This document shows positions 3,629 to 36,466 of a stretch of 42,759 nt of DNA, piece by piece. The translations under genes and the position numbers were made by a program. The notes beneath the pieces were generated by a model that saw only the letters and a list, made by a program, of their open reading frames with translations, was not told where the DNA came from and ran no database searches. Each line of letters begins with the position of its first letter. The first letter of the stretch is position 1. The DNA is from an uncultured Gammaproteobacteria bacterium. GTDB taxonomy: Bacteria > Patescibacteriota > Patescibacteriia > SG8-24. The stretch covers positions 208,534-251,292 of the forward strand of contig CAZBFO010000003.1 of NCBI GenBank assembly GCA_964491475.1, written 5' to 3'.

Positions 3629-5911
3629 TCAGAGCTTCTTGGTTTTCAGGCGCAGCGAGTTGCCGACGACCGAGACGGAGGACAGCGCCATGGCCATGCC
3701 CGCGAACACCGGATTCAACAGCCAGCCGAACAACGGGAAGAACAGGCCGGCGGCCAGCGGAATGCCGGCGACGTTGTAGAAGAACGCCCAGAACAGGTTC
3801 TGCTTGATGCCGCGCATGGTCAGCTTGGAAAGCCGCACGGCCTTGGCGATCTTGGAGATGTCGCCGTGCAGCAAGGTGATGCCGGCGGATTCGATGGCTA
3901 CGTCGGTGCCGGTGGCCATGGCGATGCCGACGTCCGCTTGGGCCAGCGCGGGTGCGTCGTTGACGCCGTCACCGGCCATGGCGACGACGTGACCCGCGGC
4001 CTGCAGTTCCTTGATCTTCTGCAGCTTGCCTTCAGGCAGCACTTCGGCCACGACTTCGTCGATGCCGGCCTGCTTGGCGATGAACGCGGCGGTGTTGCGG
4101 TTGTCGCCGGTCAGCATGACGACCTTGATGCCGAGCTTGTGGAGCTGGGCGACAGACGTGACCGCTTCGGGTTTGAGCGCGTCAGCGACCATGAAGATGC
4201 CGAGCAGCTTGCCGTCGGCGGCGAGCAGCACCGGCGTCTTGCCTTCGGATGCTTCGCGTTCGAGCGCCGCCGCGTCGAGCGATTCCACCAGCGGCGCGAT
4301 GAACGCGGCGCTGCCGGCAAAGTACTCCTTGCCTTCAACCATTCCCTTCAGGCCGCGGCCCTTCACCGCCTCGAAGGCGGATACTGCGGGAAGCGTCAGC
4401 CCCTTCTCGGCGGCGCGCGCAGTAATGGCGTGCGCGATGGGATGTTCGGATTTCTTTTCGAGCGCGGCGAGCAGCGCCGTGATTTCGTCGTCACCCTTTT
4501 GCGACAGGTTACGCACCGAAACCAGCTCCGGTTTTCCTTTGGTCACCGTGCCGGTCTTGTCGACCAGCAGCACGTCAGCCTTGTGGAGCTTCTCCAGCGT
4601 GGCGGCGTCCTTGATGAGGATGCCTTCCTTGGCGCCCTTGCCCACGCCCACGATGATGGCGGTCGGCGTGGCCAGGCCGAGCGCGCACGGGCAGGCGATG
4701 ACCAGCACGCCGACGAACGAAGTCAGGCCGTACGACAGCGCACGCGAGAATCCGAGCGGACCGTTGCCGAACAGCAGCCATGCCGCCAGCGTGACGAAGG
4801 CGATGACCAGCACCGTCGGCACGAACACCGACGAAATCTTGTCCGCCAGCGCCTGAATCGGCGCTCGGCTGCCTTGGGCTTCTTCGACCATGGCGATGAT
4901 CCGCGCCAGCATGGTTTCCGCACCGACCTTGGTGGCGCGGAAGGTGAACGAGCCGTCGGTGTTCATGGTGCCCGAGACGACGGCATCGCCCGCGGCCTTC
5001 TTCACGGGCATGGGTTCGCCGGTCACCACGGATTCGTCGACGTATGAGGAGCCGTCCGCGACGACTCCGTCCACGGGAATGCGACCGGCCGGTTTCACGA
5101 CCACGACGTCACCCTTCACGACCTGATTCACGGCGATCTCGACTTCTTTGCCGTCGCGAATCACCAGCGCAGTCTTGGCCTGAAGGTTCAGCAGCTTCTC
5201 GATGGCGTCGCCGGTCTTCTGCTTGGAAGCGCTTTCCAGATATTTGCCGAGCGCGATGAAGGCGATGACCACGATGGTCACGTCATAGTAGGTGTGCTCG
5301 ACGTTCAGGTACGGGCGCAGCGAATCTTCGAAGGCCGTGACGACGAAGCTGTAGAGGTACGCCGCCGAAGTGCCGATGCCGATGAGCGTGTCCATGTTGG
5401 CCTTGCCGTAGCGCAGGAAGCGGTAGAACCCAAGCAAGTACGGCTGCCCGACCACGAACAGCGCGTAGGTGGCGAAAAGCGGCAGGAGGTGATGGAAGAA
5501 CTCCTTCCAGAACGCAGTCATCTCCGGCAGTGCGCCGAACTGGATCGCGGCGTCCCAGGCCATCAGGAAGACGCTGACGGCGGCCAGAGGAAGGATGGAG
5601 AGCACCTTGGTGCGCATGGCCGCCAGCTCGGCGAGTTTTTCCTTTTTGGATTGTCCGATGCCGGTGTGCATGGAGTGGTCCTCCATCGTCATCGGCTCGG
5701 GCATCAGCAGCGAGTAGCCGAGCGGTTCAATCAGCTTGGAGAGCTTTTCGGGATTCGTCTTGGCGGGATCGAAGGACACTTTGGCCGCCTCGGTGCCGTA
5801 GTTGACCTCGGCGGAGTGGACGCCCTCGGCTTTCTTGAACGTCTTTTCGATGATGCCCGCGCACGAGGCGCAGTGCATGCCTTTGATTTTGTATGTGGTT
5901 GGGGTGGGCAT
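3629..5911 (-). CDS. copA: Cu(I)-exporting P1B-type ATPase
   Basis: GMHCASC HMA domain, TGE, CPC, DKTGT phosphorylation site, HP, GDGVNDAPAL, YN and MAxSS. The start could alternatively be 5920 or 5932. Confidence 0.93.
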   Translation of the reverse strand: MPTPTTYKIKGMHCASCAGIIEKTFKKAEGVHSAEVNYGTEAAKVSFDPAKTNPEKLSKLIEPLGYSLLMPEPMTMEDHSMHTGIGQSKKEKLAELAAMRTKVLSILPLAAVSVFLMAWDAAIQFGALPEMTAFWKEFFHHLLPLFATYALFVVGQPYLLGFYRFLRYGKANMDTLIGIGTSAAYLYSFVVTAFEDSLRPYLNVEHTYYDVTIVVIAFIALGKYLESASKQKTGDAIEKLLNLQAKTALVIRDGKEVEIAVNQVVKGDVVVVKPAGRIPVDGVVADGSSYVDESVVTGEPMPVKKAAGDAVVSGTMNTDGSFTFRATKVGAETMLARIIAMVEEAQGSRAPIQALADKISSVFVPTVLVIAFVTLAAWLLFGNGPLGFSRALSYGLTSFVGVLVIACPCALGLATPTAIIVGVGKGAKEGILIKDAATLEKLHKADVLLVDKTGTVTKGKPELVSVRNLSQKGDDEITALLAALEKKSEHPIAHAITARAAEKGLTLPAVSAFEAVKGRGLKGMVEGKEYFAGSAAFIAPLVESLDAAALEREASEGKTPVLLAADGKLLGIFMVADALKPEAVTSVAQLHKLGIKVVMLTGDNRNTAAFIAKQAGIDEVVAEVLPEGKLQKIKELQAAGHVVAMAGDGVNDAPALAQADVGIAMATGTDVAIESAGITLLHGDISKIAKAVRLSKLTMRGIKQNLFWAFFYNVAGIPLAAGLFFPLFGWLLNPVFAGMAMALSSVSVVGNSLRLKTKKL

Positions 5912-24388: not shown

Positions 24389-24757
24389 ATGAAGAACCGC
24401 CGTTTTTTGCCGCTGCTGGCGGACCTCTGTTTTATTTTCGCCATCCTCGTCGGCCATTACGCTTTGCCGGCGTATGCGCAGGACGCCCCCTACAGGGCGC
24501 TCATTCAGCAGCTGCGTGACAAGGACGATGCGGACAGGGCGCGTTGGCTGCAAGAGGGCAGGAAGGCCGGGTACTGCGTTTGCGGCGACAGCAACTGCAA
24601 AATGTGCAAGGTCGTCGCGAGGAGGGTTTGGGTACGACCTGACGCCGCAGCCGTTTTGGCCATCGATCTTGGGTTGGCCTGCACGGCGCTTCTCTTCGCA
24701 CTGGGTTGCCTCGCCGCTTATTTCGGCTTTCGGAGAAAAAAGGTTTCCGGTGCGTGA
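24389..24757 (+). CDS. Small membrane protein with a CxCx4CxxC motif
   Basis: SD GAGGAG; two hydrophobic segments flank GYCVCGDSNCKMCK; terminator GAGGCCC/GGGCCTC follows. Confidence 0.55.
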   Translation: MKNRRFLPLLADLCFIFAILVGHYALPAYAQDAPYRALIQQLRDKDDADRARWLQEGRKAGYCVCGDSNCKMCKVVARRVWVRPDAAAVLAIDLGLACTALLFALGCLAAYFGFRRKKVSGA

Positions 24758-24801
24758 TGCACGAGGCCCTATTGGGCCTCTTTTATTTATCCACAGCTGG
24801 T

Positions 24802-24829
24802 TTGACGCACAAGCCGCCCCTGCTATCCT
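24802..24829 (+). promoter_or_regulatory. thr operon promoter
   Basis: TTGACG-16 nt-TATCCT with extended TG (24821-24822). Confidence 0.7.
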
Positions 24830-24835
24830 GAAACC

Positions 24836-24895
24836 ATGTCTCGCATCGTTCGCACCACTACCACGACTACCACGACCACGCGCAAGGCGGGGTAG
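24836..24895 (+). CDS. thrL: Threonine attenuator leader peptide MSRIVRTTTTTTTTTRKAG
   Basis: ATG 24836, nine consecutive Thr codons (ACC/ACT/ACG mix, 24854-24880), TAG at 24893-24895, directly upstream of aspartate kinase. Confidence 0.88.
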   Translation: MSRIVRTTTTTTTTTRKAG

Positions 24896-24951
24896 GTTGG
24901 CGTGCGAGCGCACACGAGCCGATGAACCCCGCCCGGAAGCGGGGCATTTTT
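24886..24951 (+). promoter_or_regulatory. Attenuator: antiterminator (24886-24893 with 24926-24933) versus terminator (24927-24944 plus U tract)
   Basis: GGCGGGGT is the exact complement of ACCCCGCC, which alternatively forms CCCCGC-CCGGAA-GCGGGG followed by CATTTTT. Confidence 0.82.
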
Positions 24952-24962
24952 ATAAGCAGACT

Positions 24963-26429
24963 ATGATTGTCATGAAGTTCGGCGGCAGTTCGGTGGGAAC
25001 GCCGGAGGCGTTAGGACAAGTGGTCGGACTGGCGGAACGCTTTCGCGAAACCAACCCCGTGCTGGTGGTGTCGGCGCTGCAGGGCGTCACTGACGCGTTG
25101 CTCGGCTTGGCTGCCGCGGCCATCGACGGCCGAGCCGTCACGGTAAGCACCGGCATCGACGCGCTGCGCGAGCGGCATCAGGCCATGATCGACTCCTGTG
25201 CGGGCGCGAACGCTCCGGAGTGCAAGGCGCATGTCGATGCGCTGATCGGCGAGCTGGCCAAGGTGCTTGCCGCCATCAACGGCACGCACGCGCGCGTAGA
25301 ACGGGCATACGACGAGATCGTCTCATTCGGCGAGAGGCTGTCCGCGCCGATCGTCGCGGCGGCGCTGGCGGCCAAAGGCATTCCGTCGCGGGCAGTCGAC
25401 GCCCGCGAGCTGATCGTCACCGACGACCGCTTCGGTTCGGCCAACGTCTGGTTCGCACGGACCGACGAGCGCATCTCCGCCGTGCTCACGCCGATGGTCG
25501 AGGAGGGGACGGTGCCGGTGGTCACGGGTTTCATCGGCGCTACGGACGAAGGCGCCACCACCACGCTGGGTCGCGGCGGCTCCGACTACAGCGTGGCCAT
25601 CGTGGCCGGCGCGCTGGCCGCGGACGAGATATGGATATGGAAGGAAGTCGACGGCGTGCTGACGGCCGATCCGCGCGTGGTGCAGGAGGCGGCGCTGCTC
25701 TCGGCCATCAGCTACGACGAAGCCGCCGAGCTGTCGCACTTTGGCGCCAAGGTGCTCCACCCCAAGACCATGATTCCTGCCGTTGACAAGAAGATTCCGG
25801 TGCGAATGCGCAACACCTTCCGTCCCGATGCGCCCGGCACGGTCATCGGCGAACGCAGCGCGCCGACGCAGTCCGGCGTGAAGGCGGTGACGGCGGTCAA
25901 GAAGCTGTCGATGGTCACGGTAGAAGGCAAAGGCATGTCCGGCATGGCCGGGTTCGCGGCGCACGTCTTCGGCGTGGCCGGACGGCACGGCATAAACATC
26001 GTGATGTTCTGCCAGTCGTCGTCCGAGCAGAACATCTGCCTGATCAGCGATGCCAAGGACGGACGGCGGTTCAAGGAAGCGCTGGAACGCGAACTGGCCG
26101 ACGAAGTGTCGCAGCGCCTGGTCGACACCATCTCCGTAGTAGAGGACGTGGCGGCCGTGGCGGTGGTAGGCGAGGGGATGCGCGGCGTTCCCGGCGTGGC
26201 CGCGCGGCTGTTCCGCGCCGTCGCTTCGGTCGGCGTGAACGTGCTGGCCATCGCGCAAGGCTCGTCGGAGCGCAGCGTGTCGTTCATCATCGCGGAATCG
26301 AGCGCCGACGACATCGTCCGCGCGGTGCACGCCTCTTTCGCCTTGCACCTTCCCGTCACTGAAAAAACGGCCGCGGTCTCCGCGTCTGGCGGCAAGAAGG
26401 CCGCGTGGCCGGTCGACGAGGCCGCATAA
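24963..26429 (+). CDS. Aspartate kinase with two ACT domains (ThrA N-terminal half)
   Basis: MKFGGSSVG, VVSALQGVT, SFGERLS, TTLGRGGSDYS, EVDGVLTADPR and HFGAKVLHP motifs; ACT with QSSSEQNI and QGSSERSV. Confidence 0.92.
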   Translation: MIVMKFGGSSVGTPEALGQVVGLAERFRETNPVLVVSALQGVTDALLGLAAAAIDGRAVTVSTGIDALRERHQAMIDSCAGANAPECKAHVDALIGELAKVLAAINGTHARVERAYDEIVSFGERLSAPIVAAALAAKGIPSRAVDARELIVTDDRFGSANVWFARTDERISAVLTPMVEEGTVPVVTGFIGATDEGATTTLGRGGSDYSVAIVAGALAADEIWIWKEVDGVLTADPRVVQEAALLSAISYDEAAELSHFGAKVLHPKTMIPAVDKKIPVRMRNTFRPDAPGTVIGERSAPTQSGVKAVTAVKKLSMVTVEGKGMSGMAGFAAHVFGVAGRHGINIVMFCQSSSEQNICLISDAKDGRRFKEALERELADEVSQRLVDTISVVEDVAAVAVVGEGMRGVPGVAARLFRAVASVGVNVLAIAQGSSERSVSFIIAESSADDIVRAVHASFALHLPVTEKTAAVSASGGKKAAWPVDEAA

Positions 26430-26442
26430 TTACCCGAATCAC

Positions 26443-27609
26443 ATGACATTCACCAAGAAGGAATTCGTTTCGCCAGGCGTCGCCTTGGCCGAACCGACGG
26501 CTGCCAAGGAGCTGACCGTCGTGCCCATCGCGCTGGTAGGAAAGGGGAACGTCGGCCGCGCTTTCCTGCGCCAGTTGGTCGCCGCGCATCCGACGTTTCT
26601 GCGGCGCGGAGTGGACTTGCGCGTCACGGCGGTCGTCGGCCGGACGGGCATGGTGTCCGCGTCGGAAGGCGTCGATCTCGCGGCACTTTCGGAAATCGCC
26701 GAGGGCGGCGTGACGGGCGCCCGGGCGAGCGCCGGCTCACTCGGCTGGGAACGCGTCACCTCGGCCATCGCCGAGGCGTCGTCGCGCGGCCAGGTGGTCG
26801 TGGACGCCACGGCGGAAGACAACGCCGACGCGCACGCGGCCTGGCTGGAGCGCGGCTGGAGCGTGGTCACGGCGAACAAACACCCGCTGACGTCGTCGTT
26901 GGCGCAGTATGACGCCATGACCGAAGCTCGTCGCAACGGTCGCGCACAGTATCGTTACGAGGCAACGGCGGGGGCGGGATTGCCGGTCATTGCCGCCCTG
27001 CTCGACATGCTGGCGACCGGCGACGAGATTCTCGAAATCAGCGGCGCGGTCTCGGGGACTCTCGGCTACCTGTGCTCGGCCTGCGAGGAAGGCCTGCCGT
27101 TCGCGCAGGCCGTGGCCGAAGCAAAGCGCCTCGGCTTCACCGAGCCTGACCCGAGACAGGACTTGTCCGGTGCTGACGTGGCGCGCAAGGCGCTGATCCT
27201 CGCGCGGCTCATGGGCGTGCGTCAGGAGCTTGCCGACATCAGGACCGAAAGCCTGGTTCCGGAAGCGCTGGCGGACGTCGACGCCGCCGCCTTCATGAGC
27301 GGGCTGGCCGCACACGGCGAAGAGATTGATCGCCGCTTCCGTGATGCTGTCGGTCGCGGCAAAGCGCTGCGATATGCCCTGACGGTTCGCCCCGACGGCA
27401 TCAGCGTCGGGCTCGAGGAGTTCCCGGTCGGTGTCGGGCTGGGCAGCCTCAAGGGTCCGGAAAACATGTTCGTCATCCGCACGCGCCGCTACGACGCCAA
27501 TCCGCTCATCATCCGCGGGCCCGGCGCGGGCGCGGAAGTCACGGCTGCCGGAGTATTCAGCGACGTGCTCCGCACCATTCCGGGGGAGACGCCGCGCGAT
27601 CGCATCTAA
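26443..27609 (+). CDS. hom: Homoserine dehydrogenase (ThrA/MetL-type C-terminal half)
   Basis: GKGNVG Rossmann, VTANK, YEATAGAGLP, SGTLGYL, TEPDPRQDLSGADVARK and GPGAGAEVTAAGV motifs. Confidence 0.92.
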   Translation: MTFTKKEFVSPGVALAEPTAAKELTVVPIALVGKGNVGRAFLRQLVAAHPTFLRRGVDLRVTAVVGRTGMVSASEGVDLAALSEIAEGGVTGARASAGSLGWERVTSAIAEASSRGQVVVDATAEDNADAHAAWLERGWSVVTANKHPLTSSLAQYDAMTEARRNGRAQYRYEATAGAGLPVIAALLDMLATGDEILEISGAVSGTLGYLCSACEEGLPFAQAVAEAKRLGFTEPDPRQDLSGADVARKALILARLMGVRQELADIRTESLVPEALADVDAAAFMSGLAAHGEEIDRRFRDAVGRGKALRYALTVRPDGISVGLEEFPVGVGLGSLKGPENMFVIRTRRYDANPLIIRGPGAGAEVTAAGVFSDVLRTIPGETPRDRI

Positions 27610-27621
27610 CGCCGTCATTTT

Positions 27622-28677
27622 ATGGAAAAACGCATCTGCAAAATCGGCGTCCTCGGCGCCACCGGCACCGTCGGCCAGCGCATGATCACGCTGCTCGACA
27701 ATCATCCTTGGTTCACCGTCACCGCCCTGGCCGCTTCCGAAAACTCCGCGGGGAAAACGTACGCGGAAGCCTGCGCCTGGCAGCTCGATACGCCCATGCC
27801 CGCGTGGGCGGCAAAGATGACCGTCGCCAAGTGCGAGCCCGGTCTCGACTGCGATTTGGTGCTGTCCGGTTTGGACAACGCCGTCGCCGGTGACATCGAG
27901 TCGGCCTTCGCCACCGCGGGCTATGCCGTCGTGTCCAACGCCAAGAACCACCGTATGGAGGCCGACGTGCCGCTGGTGATTCCCGAAGTGAATCCGGACC
28001 ATCTCGCGGTGATCGACAAGCAGCGCAAGAACCGCGGCTGGAGCAAGGGGTTCATCGTCACCAATCCCAACTGCTCCACCGTCGGTTTGGTCTGTGCGCT
28101 CAAGCCGCTGGTGGCCGCGTTCGGCGTCAGCAAGGTCGCCGTCACCACCATGCAGGCCATCTCCGGCGCGGGCTATCCCGGCGTGCCGTCGCTCGACATC
28201 CTCGACAACGTCATTCCCTACATCGGCGGCGAGGAAGAAAAGATGCAGACGGAAACGCAGAAGCTGCTCGGCAGCTTCGACGGCAGTGCCTTCGCGCCGT
28301 CGCCGACGGTGGTGTCCGCGCAGTGCAACCGCGTGCACGTCCGTGACGGGCATCTCGAATGCGTGTCGGTCGAGCTGTCGCAGGCCGCGACTGCCGAACA
28401 GATCGTTTCTGCCTGGCGATCGTTCGTTCCCGAGGTCGCCTCGCTCAATCTTCCCAGCCTGCCGGTGCCGTTCATCAACTACCACGAAGCCGCCAACCGC
28501 CCGCAGCCGCGCCGCGACCGCGAGGCCGGACGCGGCATGACCATCAGCGTCGGCCGCCTGCGCGAGTGCCCCATTCTCGGCTGGAAGTTCGTGGTGCTCT
28601 CGCACAACACCGTCCGCGGCGCCGCCGGCGCGGCAGTCGCCGACGCCGAGCTGCTGGTCGCCAAAGGCATGCTCTGA
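27622..28677 (+). CDS. asd: Aspartate-semialdehyde dehydrogenase (archaeal/eukaryotic-like type)
   Basis: GVLGATGTVGQR, VPLVIPEVN, NPNCST, QAISGAGY, EEEK, CNRVHVRDGH and HNTVRGAAG motifs. Confidence 0.94.
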   Translation: MEKRICKIGVLGATGTVGQRMITLLDNHPWFTVTALAASENSAGKTYAEACAWQLDTPMPAWAAKMTVAKCEPGLDCDLVLSGLDNAVAGDIESAFATAGYAVVSNAKNHRMEADVPLVIPEVNPDHLAVIDKQRKNRGWSKGFIVTNPNCSTVGLVCALKPLVAAFGVSKVAVTTMQAISGAGYPGVPSLDILDNVIPYIGGEEEKMQTETQKLLGSFDGSAFAPSPTVVSAQCNRVHVRDGHLECVSVELSQAATAEQIVSAWRSFVPEVASLNLPSLPVPFINYHEAANRPQPRRDREAGRGMTISVGRLRECPILGWKFVVLSHNTVRGAAGAAVADAELLVAKGML

Positions 28678-28680
28678 CCT

Positions 28681-28998
28681 ATGGCCACGCAAAAACTGTT
28701 CATCTACGGCACGCTCAAGGACCGCGACGTCGGCAAGGCGCTGTTCGGCGGCCAACCGCACGGCACGCCCGACACTCTCGACGGCTTCGTCAAAACCACG
28801 ACCGACATCCACGGCGTCCAGTACCCCAACATCGCGTCGCAAGTCGGCAGCGCCGTAGAAGGCGAAGTCATCGAAGTGACCGAAGAAACCCTCAAGCACG
28901 TCGACGCCTACGAAACCGACGCCTACGACCGCCGCATGATGACGCTCAAAAGCGGCACGCAAGCCTGGGCCTACATCGCAGAGAGTGATTCACGGTAA
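28681..28998 (+). CDS. Gamma-glutamylcyclotransferase (AIG2-like) family protein
   Basis: LFIYGTLK, YPNI, VEGEV, VDAYE..Y and AWAY motifs. Confidence 0.85.
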   Translation: MATQKLFIYGTLKDRDVGKALFGGQPHGTPDTLDGFVKTTTDIHGVQYPNIASQVGSAVEGEVIEVTEETLKHVDAYETDAYDRRMMTLKSGTQAWAYIAESDSR

Positions 28999-29051
28999 CC
29001 CGAGGCACAAAACGCCTCGGTAAAATCCCGGCTTTCCCCAAGCAGGTACGC

Positions 29052-29146
29052 GGGGGTGGCAGGGGTGGGGGACCCCGACAGCGCGCAGGGCCGCCGCAGC
29101 GGACCGAGCACTGTCGGGGGTGACCCCTGACAGGCCCAGCGCACCC
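29052..29146. other. GC-rich nested palindromic intergenic element
   Basis: CAGGGGT(29060-66)/ACCCCTG(29123-29) encloses CCCCGACAG(29073-81)/CTGTCGGGG(29111-19). Confidence 0.55.
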
Positions 29147-29245
29147 TCTTAGCAAACCGGACAGCGCCGGAACCTTTTTGACACCGCATCCCAATAATGC
29201 GACGCTCTGCCCAGTCGTTCTTTTCGCTTACCCGAGGAGTCACCA

Positions 29246-30544
29246 ATGAGCACTACGCGGCTCTACTGCATCGTCTGCCGCACGTCCTATCCTCTGGACG
29301 GCCAGCGGATGCGTTGCGATTGCGGCGGCCTGATGGACGTCGTTCACGACTTCTGGCACTTCAACCGCTTCGGACCCGAACCGCTGAAGCGCCTGTTCGA
29401 ACATCGTCGGCAATCGCCGTCGTGCTCGGCGGACCGCAGCGGCGTCTGGCGCTTTCGCGAGCTGATCGTCCCGGACCTGGCCCTGCACGAGCTGGTCACG
29501 CGCGGCGAGGGTAACACGCGGCTGTACGACGCGTCCGTCTGCCGCCGAGCCAATGCCTGGATGGACACGACTGACGTCTCCTTCAAGCACGAGGGCGAGA
29601 ACCCCACCGGTTCGTTCAAGGACCGCGGCATGACCGTGGCGGTGAGCTGGGCCAAGAAGCACGGCGCCAAGACCGTCGTCTGCGCTTCGACCGGCAACAC
29701 CTCGGCTTCCGTCGCCTCGTACGCGGCGTTGGCCGGACTCAAGGCCGTCATCCTCATCTCCGAACAGGGGACTGCCGCCGGCAAGATCGCGCAGTCGCTG
29801 GCTTACGGCGCCAAGGCCCTGATGATCCGCGGCGACTTCGACCAGGCGCTCAAGCTGGTGCTCGAAGCTCGGGAGAAGCTCGGGCTGGCGGTGATGAACT
29901 CGGTCAATCCCGTCCGTCTCGAAGGACAGAAGACCATCATCTGGGAAACGCTGGAGCAGCTCGGCTGGCAGGCGCCCGACTGGTTCGTGGTTCCCGGCGG
30001 CAACCTCGGCAACGCCGCCGCCTTCGGCAAGGCGCTGCGCGAGGCGGTCGACCTGGGTCTCATCAAGACCATGCCGCGCTTGGCGGTCGTGCAGGCCGAA
30101 GGTGCCAATCCGCTGGTACAGGCCTCGCTCTGCCAGTGGAAGATGACCGCGGTGAAGGCCGCGACCATCGCCACGGCCATCAAGATCGGCGACCCGGTCA
30201 ATTTTCCCAAGGCCGTCCGATCCCTCAAACAGACCGACGGCGTCGTCACCGACGTCACCGATCAGGAGATCATGGATGCCAAGGCCGTGCTCGACGGCGA
30301 CGGCGTCGGGGCGGAGCCGGCCTCCTGCGCCACGGTCGCCGGCATTCGCAAGCTGCGGGTGCACGGCGTCATCGGCAGGGAGCAGAAAACCGTGGCGGTG
30401 CTTACGGGCCACGTGCTCAAGGATCCCGACGCCACCATCGGCTACCATCGTCGCACGCTGACCGGCATTGCGCCCTCACGCCCGAACTCCCCGACGGTCA
30501 TCGACCCGACGCTCCAAGACCTGGAAAAGGCGCTCGCGCCGTGA
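29246..30544 (+). CDS. thrC: Threonine synthase (fold type II, N-terminal CxxC...CxC)
   Basis: KHEGENPTGSFKDRG (PLP Lys), CASTGNTSAS, NSVNP.RLEGQKT, VPGGNLGN and TGHVLKD motifs; SD GAGGAG. Confidence 0.92.
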   Translation: MSTTRLYCIVCRTSYPLDGQRMRCDCGGLMDVVHDFWHFNRFGPEPLKRLFEHRRQSPSCSADRSGVWRFRELIVPDLALHELVTRGEGNTRLYDASVCRRANAWMDTTDVSFKHEGENPTGSFKDRGMTVAVSWAKKHGAKTVVCASTGNTSASVASYAALAGLKAVILISEQGTAAGKIAQSLAYGAKALMIRGDFDQALKLVLEAREKLGLAVMNSVNPVRLEGQKTIIWETLEQLGWQAPDWFVVPGGNLGNAAAFGKALREAVDLGLIKTMPRLAVVQAEGANPLVQASLCQWKMTAVKAATIATAIKIGDPVNFPKAVRSLKQTDGVVTDVTDQEIMDAKAVLDGDGVGAEPASCATVAGIRKLRVHGVIGREQKTVAVLTGHVLKDPDATIGYHRRTLTGIAPSRPNSPTVIDPTLQDLEKALAP

Positions 30545-32969: not shown

Positions 32970-33014
32970 CACCGCTTTTTGCACACAAAAGTTATCCCCA
33001 GCCAAACATAACTG

Positions 33015-33063
33015 CCACAACATCTTGTGGTATGCTGCGTGTAACAGCCACTATATCTAGTTT
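33015..33063 (+). promoter_or_regulatory. Tandem NrdR boxes upstream of nrdJ
   Basis: CCACAACATCTTGTGG (33015-30) and CCACTATATCTAGTTT (33048-63) match the acaCwAtATaTwGtgt consensus; starts are 33 bp apart. Confidence 0.75.

Positions 33064-33157: not shown

Positions 33158-36466
<3,309 letters not shown>

Follow-up and report, generated by a model that had tools for sequence, protein, structure and literature searches.

A putative threonine-codon transcription attenuator upstream of a split thrA operon in a Patescibacteria-like genome

A short open reading frame (ORF) with nine consecutive threonine codons, followed by an intrinsic terminator, stands just ahead of the aspartate kinase gene of a threonine operon in a stretch of contig CAZBFO010000003.1 from an uncultured bacterium (42,759 nucleotides [nt], hereafter the window). 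With a probability of roughly 85%, we consider this element to act as a ribosome-mediated transcription attenuator that responds to charged tRNA-Thr and regulates an operon composed of aspartate kinase, homoserine dehydrogenase, aspartate-semialdehyde dehydrogenase (asd), a GGACT-family gene and probably threonine synthase (thrC). Three features of this class were found in silico, namely a Thr-codon ORF 5' of the first gene, an intrinsic terminator and an antiterminator that excludes it. An earlier note on this DNA, made from the sequence alone, had proposed an attenuator between 24802 and 24962, a span that opens with the promoter-like -35 hexamer and closes on the last base ahead of the aspartate kinase ATG (24963), and the anatomy, conservation and structure modelling of the element support that interpretation in silico. 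The leader was also said to be unannotated, and indeed, for eight of the ten relatives described below, the gene calls include no ORF at this place; in the other two, the gene calls at the leader are limited to a 61-aa ORF that ends at the leader stop codon and contains the leader (L170, 4673-4858), or comprise a 63-aa ORF that overlaps the leader in another frame (L172, 2731-2922). The features of the element and of the operon, together with the leader peptides of the relatives, are collected in Table 1.

Table 1. Predicted features of the leader region and operon (window positions) and leader peptides of the related loci
Feature	Position	Strand	Basis or sequence
Conserved box matching the DnaA-box consensus exactly, 6 nt ahead of the -35	24787-24795	+	TTATCCACA; sole exact copy in the window
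Promoter-like site: -35 TTGACG (24802-24807), 16-nt spacer, extended -10 TGcTATCCT (24821-24829)	24802-24829	+	Consensus scan
Leader peptide ORF, 19 codons	24836-24895	+	MSRIVRTTTTTTTTTRKAG, then stop; read from sequence
Region 1: Thr codons plus 24847-24853; in ribosome-free RNA, paired with region 2 and the bases beyond	24847-24880	+	Minimum free energy folds
Nine consecutive Thr codons, putative regulatory codons	24854-24880	+	ACC ACT ACC ACG ACT ACC ACG ACC ACG
Region 2, antiterminator 5' arm; shared with the final codons of the leader and the T of TAG	24886-24893	+	GGCGGGGT
Region 3, common to antiterminator and terminator	24926-24933	+	ACCCCGCC
Intrinsic terminator CCCCGC-CCGGAA-GCGGGG (24927-24944), then CA and TTTTT (24947-24951)	24927-24951	+	Terminator scan
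Aspartate kinase, ThrA-N-like with ACT domains, first regulated gene	24963-26429	+	NCBIfam aspartate kinase models
Homoserine dehydrogenase, ThrA-C-like	26443-27609	+	332 bits, positions 464-813 of the bifunctional aspartate kinase/homoserine dehydrogenase I model
Aspartate-semialdehyde dehydrogenase (asd), archaeal/eukaryotic type	27622-28677	+	NF006416, 496 bits; TIGR00978, 438 bits
GGACT-family (gamma-glutamyl cyclotransferase-like) gene	28681-28998	+	Pfam PF06094, E = 2e-16
Threonine synthase (thrC)	29246-30544	+	TIGR00260, 249 bits (cutoff 167)
L161 leader peptide			MSRIARITTTTTTTTRKAG
L162 leader peptide			MSRVTCVTTTTTTTTRNAG
L165 leader peptide			MAFVSVSTTTTTTTTRKAG
L169 leader peptide			MAFVTVSTTTTTTTTRRAG
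L167 leader peptide			MVLATVTTTTTSTTRKAG
L168 leader peptide			MVLATLTTTTTSTTPKAG
L170 leader peptide			MATAFVTTTTTTTTTTTCSAG
L172 leader peptide			MRNHLTVTTTTTTTTPKAG
L175 leader peptide			MKFALATTATTTTTSP
L176 leader peptide			MRASRGTMTTTSTSTPPAGSMSRA (shortened form MRASRGTMTTTSTSTPPAG..)

The codons of the leader are, in order, ATG TCT CGC ATC GTT CGC, the nine for Thr, and CGC AAG GCG GGG TAG. The run of nine, of three kinds as the earlier note had it (ACC four times, ACG three times and ACT twice), is matched in length by no other run of a single residue in the window, all six frames considered, except the Val run on its own reverse complement, and its chance expectation, calculated from the AC dinucleotide frequency, is about 3e-7. 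The use of three codon kinds had been taken to argue for selection on the amino acid rather than slippage, but the run shows a weak 9-nt periodicity in Tandem Repeats Finder (CACGACTAC x2.7, score 41), so the codon kinds alone cannot exclude the duplication of a three-codon unit. Selection is nevertheless indicated by the relatives, because they keep the Thr run with different synonymous codons, and for the same reason slippage or a microsatellite was ruled out as the sole origin of the run.

Also as previously claimed, the end of the leader pairs perfectly with a segment that otherwise belongs to the CCCCGC/GCGGGG terminator, since regions 2 and 3 are 100% complementary over 8 nt. The terminator stem, CCCCGC (24927-24932) with GCGGGG (24939-24944), has 6 base pairs (bp) and a 6-nt loop, with a hairpin free energy of -11.3 kcal/mol, and the aspartate kinase ATG starts 12 nt after the T run. 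An inverted repeat connects 24847-24862, where region 1 begins, with 24895-24910. On the other side of the leader, the neighbouring DUF5715 gene ends at 24757 and is followed by a terminator of its own (24763-24780, terminator scan), which places the leader terminator within a transcription unit. For a region 2 mutant, GGCCCCGT was considered as the substitute for GGCGGGGT.

From this arrangement we infer the following course of events. Transcription would start at the leader ATG or a few bases away from it, and a ribosome would translate the 19-codon leader. When Thr-tRNA is scarce, the ribosome would stall within the nine Thr codons and keep region 1 off region 2, so that the freed GGCGGGGT could pair with ACCCCGCC as region 3 is made; this 2:3 pairing would block the terminator stem, and RNA polymerase would read into the operon. 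When Thr-tRNA is plentiful, the ribosome would reach the TAG and cover region 2, upon which the CCCCGC/GCGGGG stem with its T run would form and transcription would end at about 24951. Untranslated RNA would also terminate, with region 1 pairing with region 2.

The folding of the window transcript to the end of region 4, with the ribosome footprint (A-site nucleotide -15 to +12) masked, behaves as this course of events predicts. The terminator has a probability of 0.0 with the A site on codons 1-14, which rises to 1.0 once the A site is on the last Thr codon and stays there as far as the stop codon. Placing the 3' edge of the footprint anywhere between +8 and +16 shifts the switch point by no more than one codon. 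In ribosome-free RNA the probability is 0.99, the Thr codons being then paired with region 2 and the bases that follow it. Folding of the alternative structures, which the earlier note had put forward as a check, thus gives a change from antiterminator to terminator at the end of the Thr run.

Comparison with relatives carries much of the argument. Homologues were taken from a protein search and their loci located individually, which gave ten further distinct loci, and hence 11 sequences with the window; the aspartate kinases of the ten are 86-59% identical to that of the window. A short ORF is found at the equivalent place in all ten, and all 11 leaders contain 6-12 Thr codons. Within the Thr run, codon positions 1 and 2 (AC) are almost invariant while position 3 varies among C, G and T, a choice that matches the Thr codon usage of the genome itself. 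Conservation is lacking at the N-terminus (relatives start with MAFV, MVLA, MATA, MRNH, MKFA or MRAS), and the MxRI start that had been likened to that of the Escherichia coli leader thrL is therefore coincidental. The AG ending, likewise said to be common to both, recurs among the relatives as the translation of GCGGGG, the RNA element of region 2, and so reflects a constraint on the RNA and not on the peptide. The proposal that the attenuator senses Thr only holds, given that Ile codons are confined to the window leader (one) and to L161 (two), with none in the other nine.

The RNA elements are conserved as well. Each of the 11 sequences has a GC-rich hairpin with a T-rich stretch behind it; in L176 there are only four T's. 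In the model-fitted alignment of the 11, 97% of the terminator cells are paired, compared with 36-53% in slid registers, and compensatory changes occur in three of the six pairs, a result reached by 0/500 shuffles; for the antiterminator, 92% of the cells are paired, compared with 41-59% in slid registers. An unbiased duplex search over the whole upstream transcript showed, in every one of the 11 sequences, that region 3 pairs best with the GCGGGG segment. Relative to the leader stop codon, region 2 lies between -9 and +12 in 10/11 and between -25 and -12 in L176, where it is farther upstream because the ORF runs on. Where the arms are extended, the extensions match one another within a lineage (CCGGCGGGGT with ACCCCGCCGG in L176, AGGCGGGG with CCCCGCCU in L172, and GCGGGGCUGG with CAGCCCGC in L175). 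A covariance model built from the 11 sequences (R1) recovers all of them at 76-125 bits; among 160 loci whose kinases belong to the same family but are more distant, it gave no significant hit. Scans with the kinase of genome and metagenome contig collections, dominated by the generic N-terminal motif MIVMKFGG, yielded only relatives of 49% identity or less, none of them with this leader.

The promoter-like site is also kept, in the form TTGAC-N16/17-TGnTAnnCT with a variable spacer sequence, in 10/11 sequences. The leader ATG is only 6 nt past the -10 hexamer in the window and 6-8 nt past it in nine of the 11, the exceptions being L170 and L172 (13-15 nt), and no Shine-Dalgarno sequence precedes it in any of the 11, whereas other genes of the window have one (GAGGAG at thrC and AAGGAG at the DUF5715 gene). 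Judged from the -10-to-ATG spacing alone, the leader is probably translated from a leaderless or near-leaderless transcript.

The box ahead of the -35 could act as an operator or as an activator site, perhaps one bound by DnaA, and as such it may add a second layer of control. It occurs at the equivalent place in L161 (2039-2047), L162 (3824-3832), L165 (3809-3817) and L169 (2114-2122), and as the variant TTATCCCCA in L167 (4823-4831) and L168 (4819-4827); in each of these six loci it is the only exact copy, and its distance to the -35 is 6 nt except in L169, where it is 9 nt. In L170, TTATCCACA is found twice at 4707-4742, where the two copies make up a perfect hairpin (TTATCCACACCGGGG...CCCCGGTGTGGATAA), one in each arm, after the upstream gene and ahead of the thr promoter. 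The window has a TTATCCCCA box elsewhere, at 32992-33000, upstream of a class II ribonucleotide reductase gene (33158-36466), and 3' of it, at about 33048-33062, are an extended -10-like sequence (TGGTATGCT) and an NrdR-box-like sequence (CCACTATATCTAGT). Some other bacteria are known to control their nrd genes through DnaA and NrdR.

Several results weigh against attenuation as proposed above. Covariation in relatives, another of the checks put forward earlier, came out clearly for the terminator and weakly for the antiterminator, which has a single compensatory cell, a score equalled by 139/500 shuffles; the weakness is explained by a region 2 that is nearly invariant and also coding. The T tracts are interrupted in several relatives (TCCTTTCTTT). 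Translation of a leader without a Shine-Dalgarno sequence would require that this lineage be capable of leaderless or short-leader initiation. The syntenic locus L171, from a Candidatus (Ca.) Uhrbacteria metagenome-assembled genome (MAG; GCA_016205965.1) with a kinase 59% identical to that of the window, has the same gene order as elsewhere (CCA-adding enzyme, small ORF, DUF5715 gene, aspartate kinase, homoserine dehydrogenase, asd) and yet neither leader ORF nor attenuator, with only a 57-nt spacer between the DUF5715 gene and the kinase (4944-5001), so that the attenuator must have been gained or lost within the lineage. In L165, L169, L168 and L176, whose terminator stems have 9-11 bp, the terminator is favoured at equilibrium whatever the position of the ribosome, and in L170 and L172 the ribosome-free equilibrium fold lacks the terminator (P = 0.01). 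The latter means that termination of untranslated RNA is not general, although in both of these sequences the terminator does form when the ribosome has arrived at the end of the Thr run. The former rules out equilibrium folding as a sufficient model by itself and calls for kinetic, co-transcriptional pre-emption, for which an approximation with truncated transcripts was added. In transcripts cut before region 4, region 3 goes from being paired upstream to being free at the end of the Thr run in 11/11 sequences, and in this model such behaviour is what kinetic attenuation requires.

Some of these same observations would suit a mechanism in which the same ORF and the same stalling at Thr codons exert control through translation-coupled polarity, by Rho-dependent termination or by translational coupling between leader and kinase. 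Such control has been reported for the leaderless polycysteine upstream ORFs of mycobacteria. The weak, interrupted T tracts and the very stable stems that do not switch at equilibrium in several relatives would fit it, as would an aspartate kinase start without an obvious Shine-Dalgarno sequence and a leader that looks leaderless, like those reported for the mycobacterial Cys attenuators (10.1101/834739). Rho-dependent termination or coupling, however, needs neither the hairpin nor region 2, and it is these that the relatives preserve: the GC hairpin and T-rich sequence in 11/11, with compensatory changes, and region 2 at the leader stop codon in 10/11 and 12-25 nt upstream of it in L176. Since the hairpin also leaves the start region of the kinase uncovered, we find control by polarity improbable.

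If the ORF were instead untranslated or irrelevant, the hairpin could be a constitutive partial terminator, or part of a switch that binds a protein, a tRNA or a metabolite (a T-box or riboswitch), with ACN repeats that arose by chance. Translation of the ORF is deduced from sequence, with the Shine-Dalgarno sequence absent, and the 9-nt periodicity would agree with such an origin of the repeats; but T-box and riboswitch families are unmatched even at E <= 10, the 3-nt periodicity of conservation, the conserved ATG and the in-frame stop beside region 2 indicate a translated frame, and the N-terminus is free to vary while the Thr codons are not, all of which makes this account very improbable. 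Least probable of all, and scarcely to be expected, is that the peptide is itself the functional product, either a small Thr-rich protein or a leader peptide that acts in trans, and the hairpin merely its terminator. Peptides of the latter kind exist, as reported for peTrpL in Sinorhizobium (PMC7298713), but if the promoter served a 19-codon gene alone, the Thr operon that begins 12 nt further on would lack one; the peptide is, in addition, unconserved outside the Thr run, and its C-terminal AG is explained by RNA pairing.

The attenuator would thus govern an operon dedicated largely to threonine synthesis. The aspartate kinase aligns with positions 1-460 of the bifunctional ThrA model (459 bits) and has homologues with Pfam AA_kinase and ACT domains, and the homoserine dehydrogenase matches the remaining half; both fit their half of ThrA better than they fit monofunctional homoserine dehydrogenase models. 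As they match the N- and C-terminal halves of the bifunctional enzyme, respectively, the pair represents a split thrA. The two genes are separate and adjacent in the window and overlap in several relatives. The GGACT-family gene, which has no obvious role in Thr synthesis, is also found between asd and thrB/thrC in L163, L165, L167 and L170. The spacer that precedes thrC (28999-29245, 247 nt) is G-rich and structured, has no Rfam match and contains a promoter-like TTGACA, and thrC may have a promoter of its own there; in relatives, this place is occupied by thrB. Hairpins with T runs stand at gene ends in the window, at 24763-24780 and after thrC. The GHMP-kinase thrB adjoins thrC in several relatives, but neither homoserine kinase nor a remnant of it was matched in the whole window with the ThrB protein of L167 as query. 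Of the suggestion that the element represents feedback-regulated amino-acid biosynthesis in the candidate phyla radiation (CPR), the attenuator is supported in silico, whereas the claim of autonomous Thr synthesis is weakened by a window in which thrB was not found and by a taxonomy that is unverified.

The assignment of the host to the CPR is itself plausible, although not proven. The neighbouring gene for the CCA-adding enzyme is syntenic in all relatives, and the named best hits of its product are from Ca. Parcubacteria (62%) and Ca. Uhrbacteria (54%, 56%, 46% and 42%), with further named hits to entries labelled 'Patescibacteria group' (55%, 55%, 50% and 49%) and to Parcubacteria SG8_24 (47%), whereas matches in Nitrospirota reach only about 47%. 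Two syntenic soil MAGs are labelled Binatia and Eisenbacteria, labels made doubtful by a gene order common to them and the other relatives. The G+C content of the window is 60-67%; such values are unusual for CPR bacteria, though known. For many ORFs of the window, Pfam gives either nothing or DUF families alone (DUF5765, DUF5715).

The mechanism proposed is not new, as attenuation by leader peptides is textbook material and Proteobacteria are known to have Thr leaders. The novelty lies in the family and in its host; the element is conserved across a group of uncultured genomes with Parcubacteria, Uhrbacteria and Patescibacteria as their named relatives. The CPR is usually described as auxotrophic and poor in regulation. 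A search of the literature for attenuators or leader peptides in Patescibacteria, or for genes of the Thr pathway in the CPR, found nothing relevant. If the element works as predicted, the aspartate-family pathway would operate in these organisms, at least in part, and be adjusted to the charging of Thr-tRNA, their ribosomes would trail RNA polymerase closely enough for attenuation, and translation could initiate in them on leaderless or near-leaderless mRNAs. We put forward only tentatively, at somewhat less than even odds, the broader proposal of a family of leaderless, Thr-only attenuators that is specific to Uhrbacteria-like Patescibacteria, independent of the proteobacterial thrL, and evidence of both transcription-translation coupling and feedback regulation by Thr. 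None of the curated RNA families detects the element at threshold, and covariance model R1 could serve to annotate it in metagenomes.

Among known systems, the closest in design is the enterobacterial thrL leader of E. coli (RF00506), where a short ORF with a Thr-codon run likewise precedes a ThrA-type aspartate kinase/homoserine dehydrogenase gene. There, too, the end of the ORF (GCGGG) supplies the 5' arm of an antiterminator, in competition with a GC-rich terminator and its U tract. At gathering thresholds, no Rfam family, tRNA and rRNA included, was found in the whole 42.8-kb window. The Thr_leader model RF00506, on 501 nt of the window, is the only relevant match at E <= 10 (no T-box or riboswitch family appears even at that level); it aligns over its full length with equivalent helices, and its score of 23.7 bits (E = 0.032) stays below the gathering threshold of 55. 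The model has no match at the leader in eight relatives, and a hit in L170 (3497-3586) was taken as chance because it sits at the end of the CCA-enzyme gene and not at the leader. The window element differs from thrL in having no conserved Ile codons and in being likely leaderless where thrL is led by a Shine-Dalgarno sequence, in a thrA that is split in two genes within an operon that also contains asd and the GGACT-family gene, and in a host lineage that is Patescibacteria-like rather than proteobacterial. The element is therefore thrL-like in its predicted working while falling short of the score for membership of the Rfam family Thr_leader, and it may or may not share descent with thrL.

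With trpL, hisL, leuL, pheL and ilvL, the element has in common the logic of four regions with mutually exclusive 2:3 and 3:4 helices, the masking of region 2 by a ribosome at the stop codon, the placement of the regulatory codons in region 1 and a predicted switch point at the end of the codon run; it senses another amino acid, has no sequence relationship with them and is known here from sequence and folding. A parallel for the start of the leader comes from mycobacteria, in which leaderless polycysteine upstream ORFs are reported to be cysteine-responsive attenuators of operonic expression (Canestrari et al., bioRxiv 10.1101/834739). Those ORFs stand at the 5' end of the transcript, as the window leader probably does, and both kinds have tandem codons for the amino acid of the downstream operon; the mycobacterial ORFs differ in sensing Cys, while the window leader would sense Thr and has an evident pair of intrinsic terminator and antiterminator.

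Thr-rich short ORFs also lie directly upstream of ThrA-type aspartate kinases in two Caldilineaceae MAGs (L017, 3649-3720, MTTTTTMGNRWAMRAQ..; L025, 3812-3892, MTTGTTMTTQCWAMRAQ..) and in one Cyclobacteriaceae MAG (L020, 3863-3922, MTLITLSCTPTTTTGITRA). In the former two, the ORF is followed by a strong terminator with a 3' arm that part of the ORF resembles; at L020 only the ORF was observed, with a weak fold. They have no sequence similarity to the window leader, and covariance model R1 gives 16 bits on L017 (E = 0.09). These ORFs look like independent Thr attenuators, in Chloroflexota and Bacteroidota, which suggests that Thr attenuators upstream of ThrA-type kinases arose several times.

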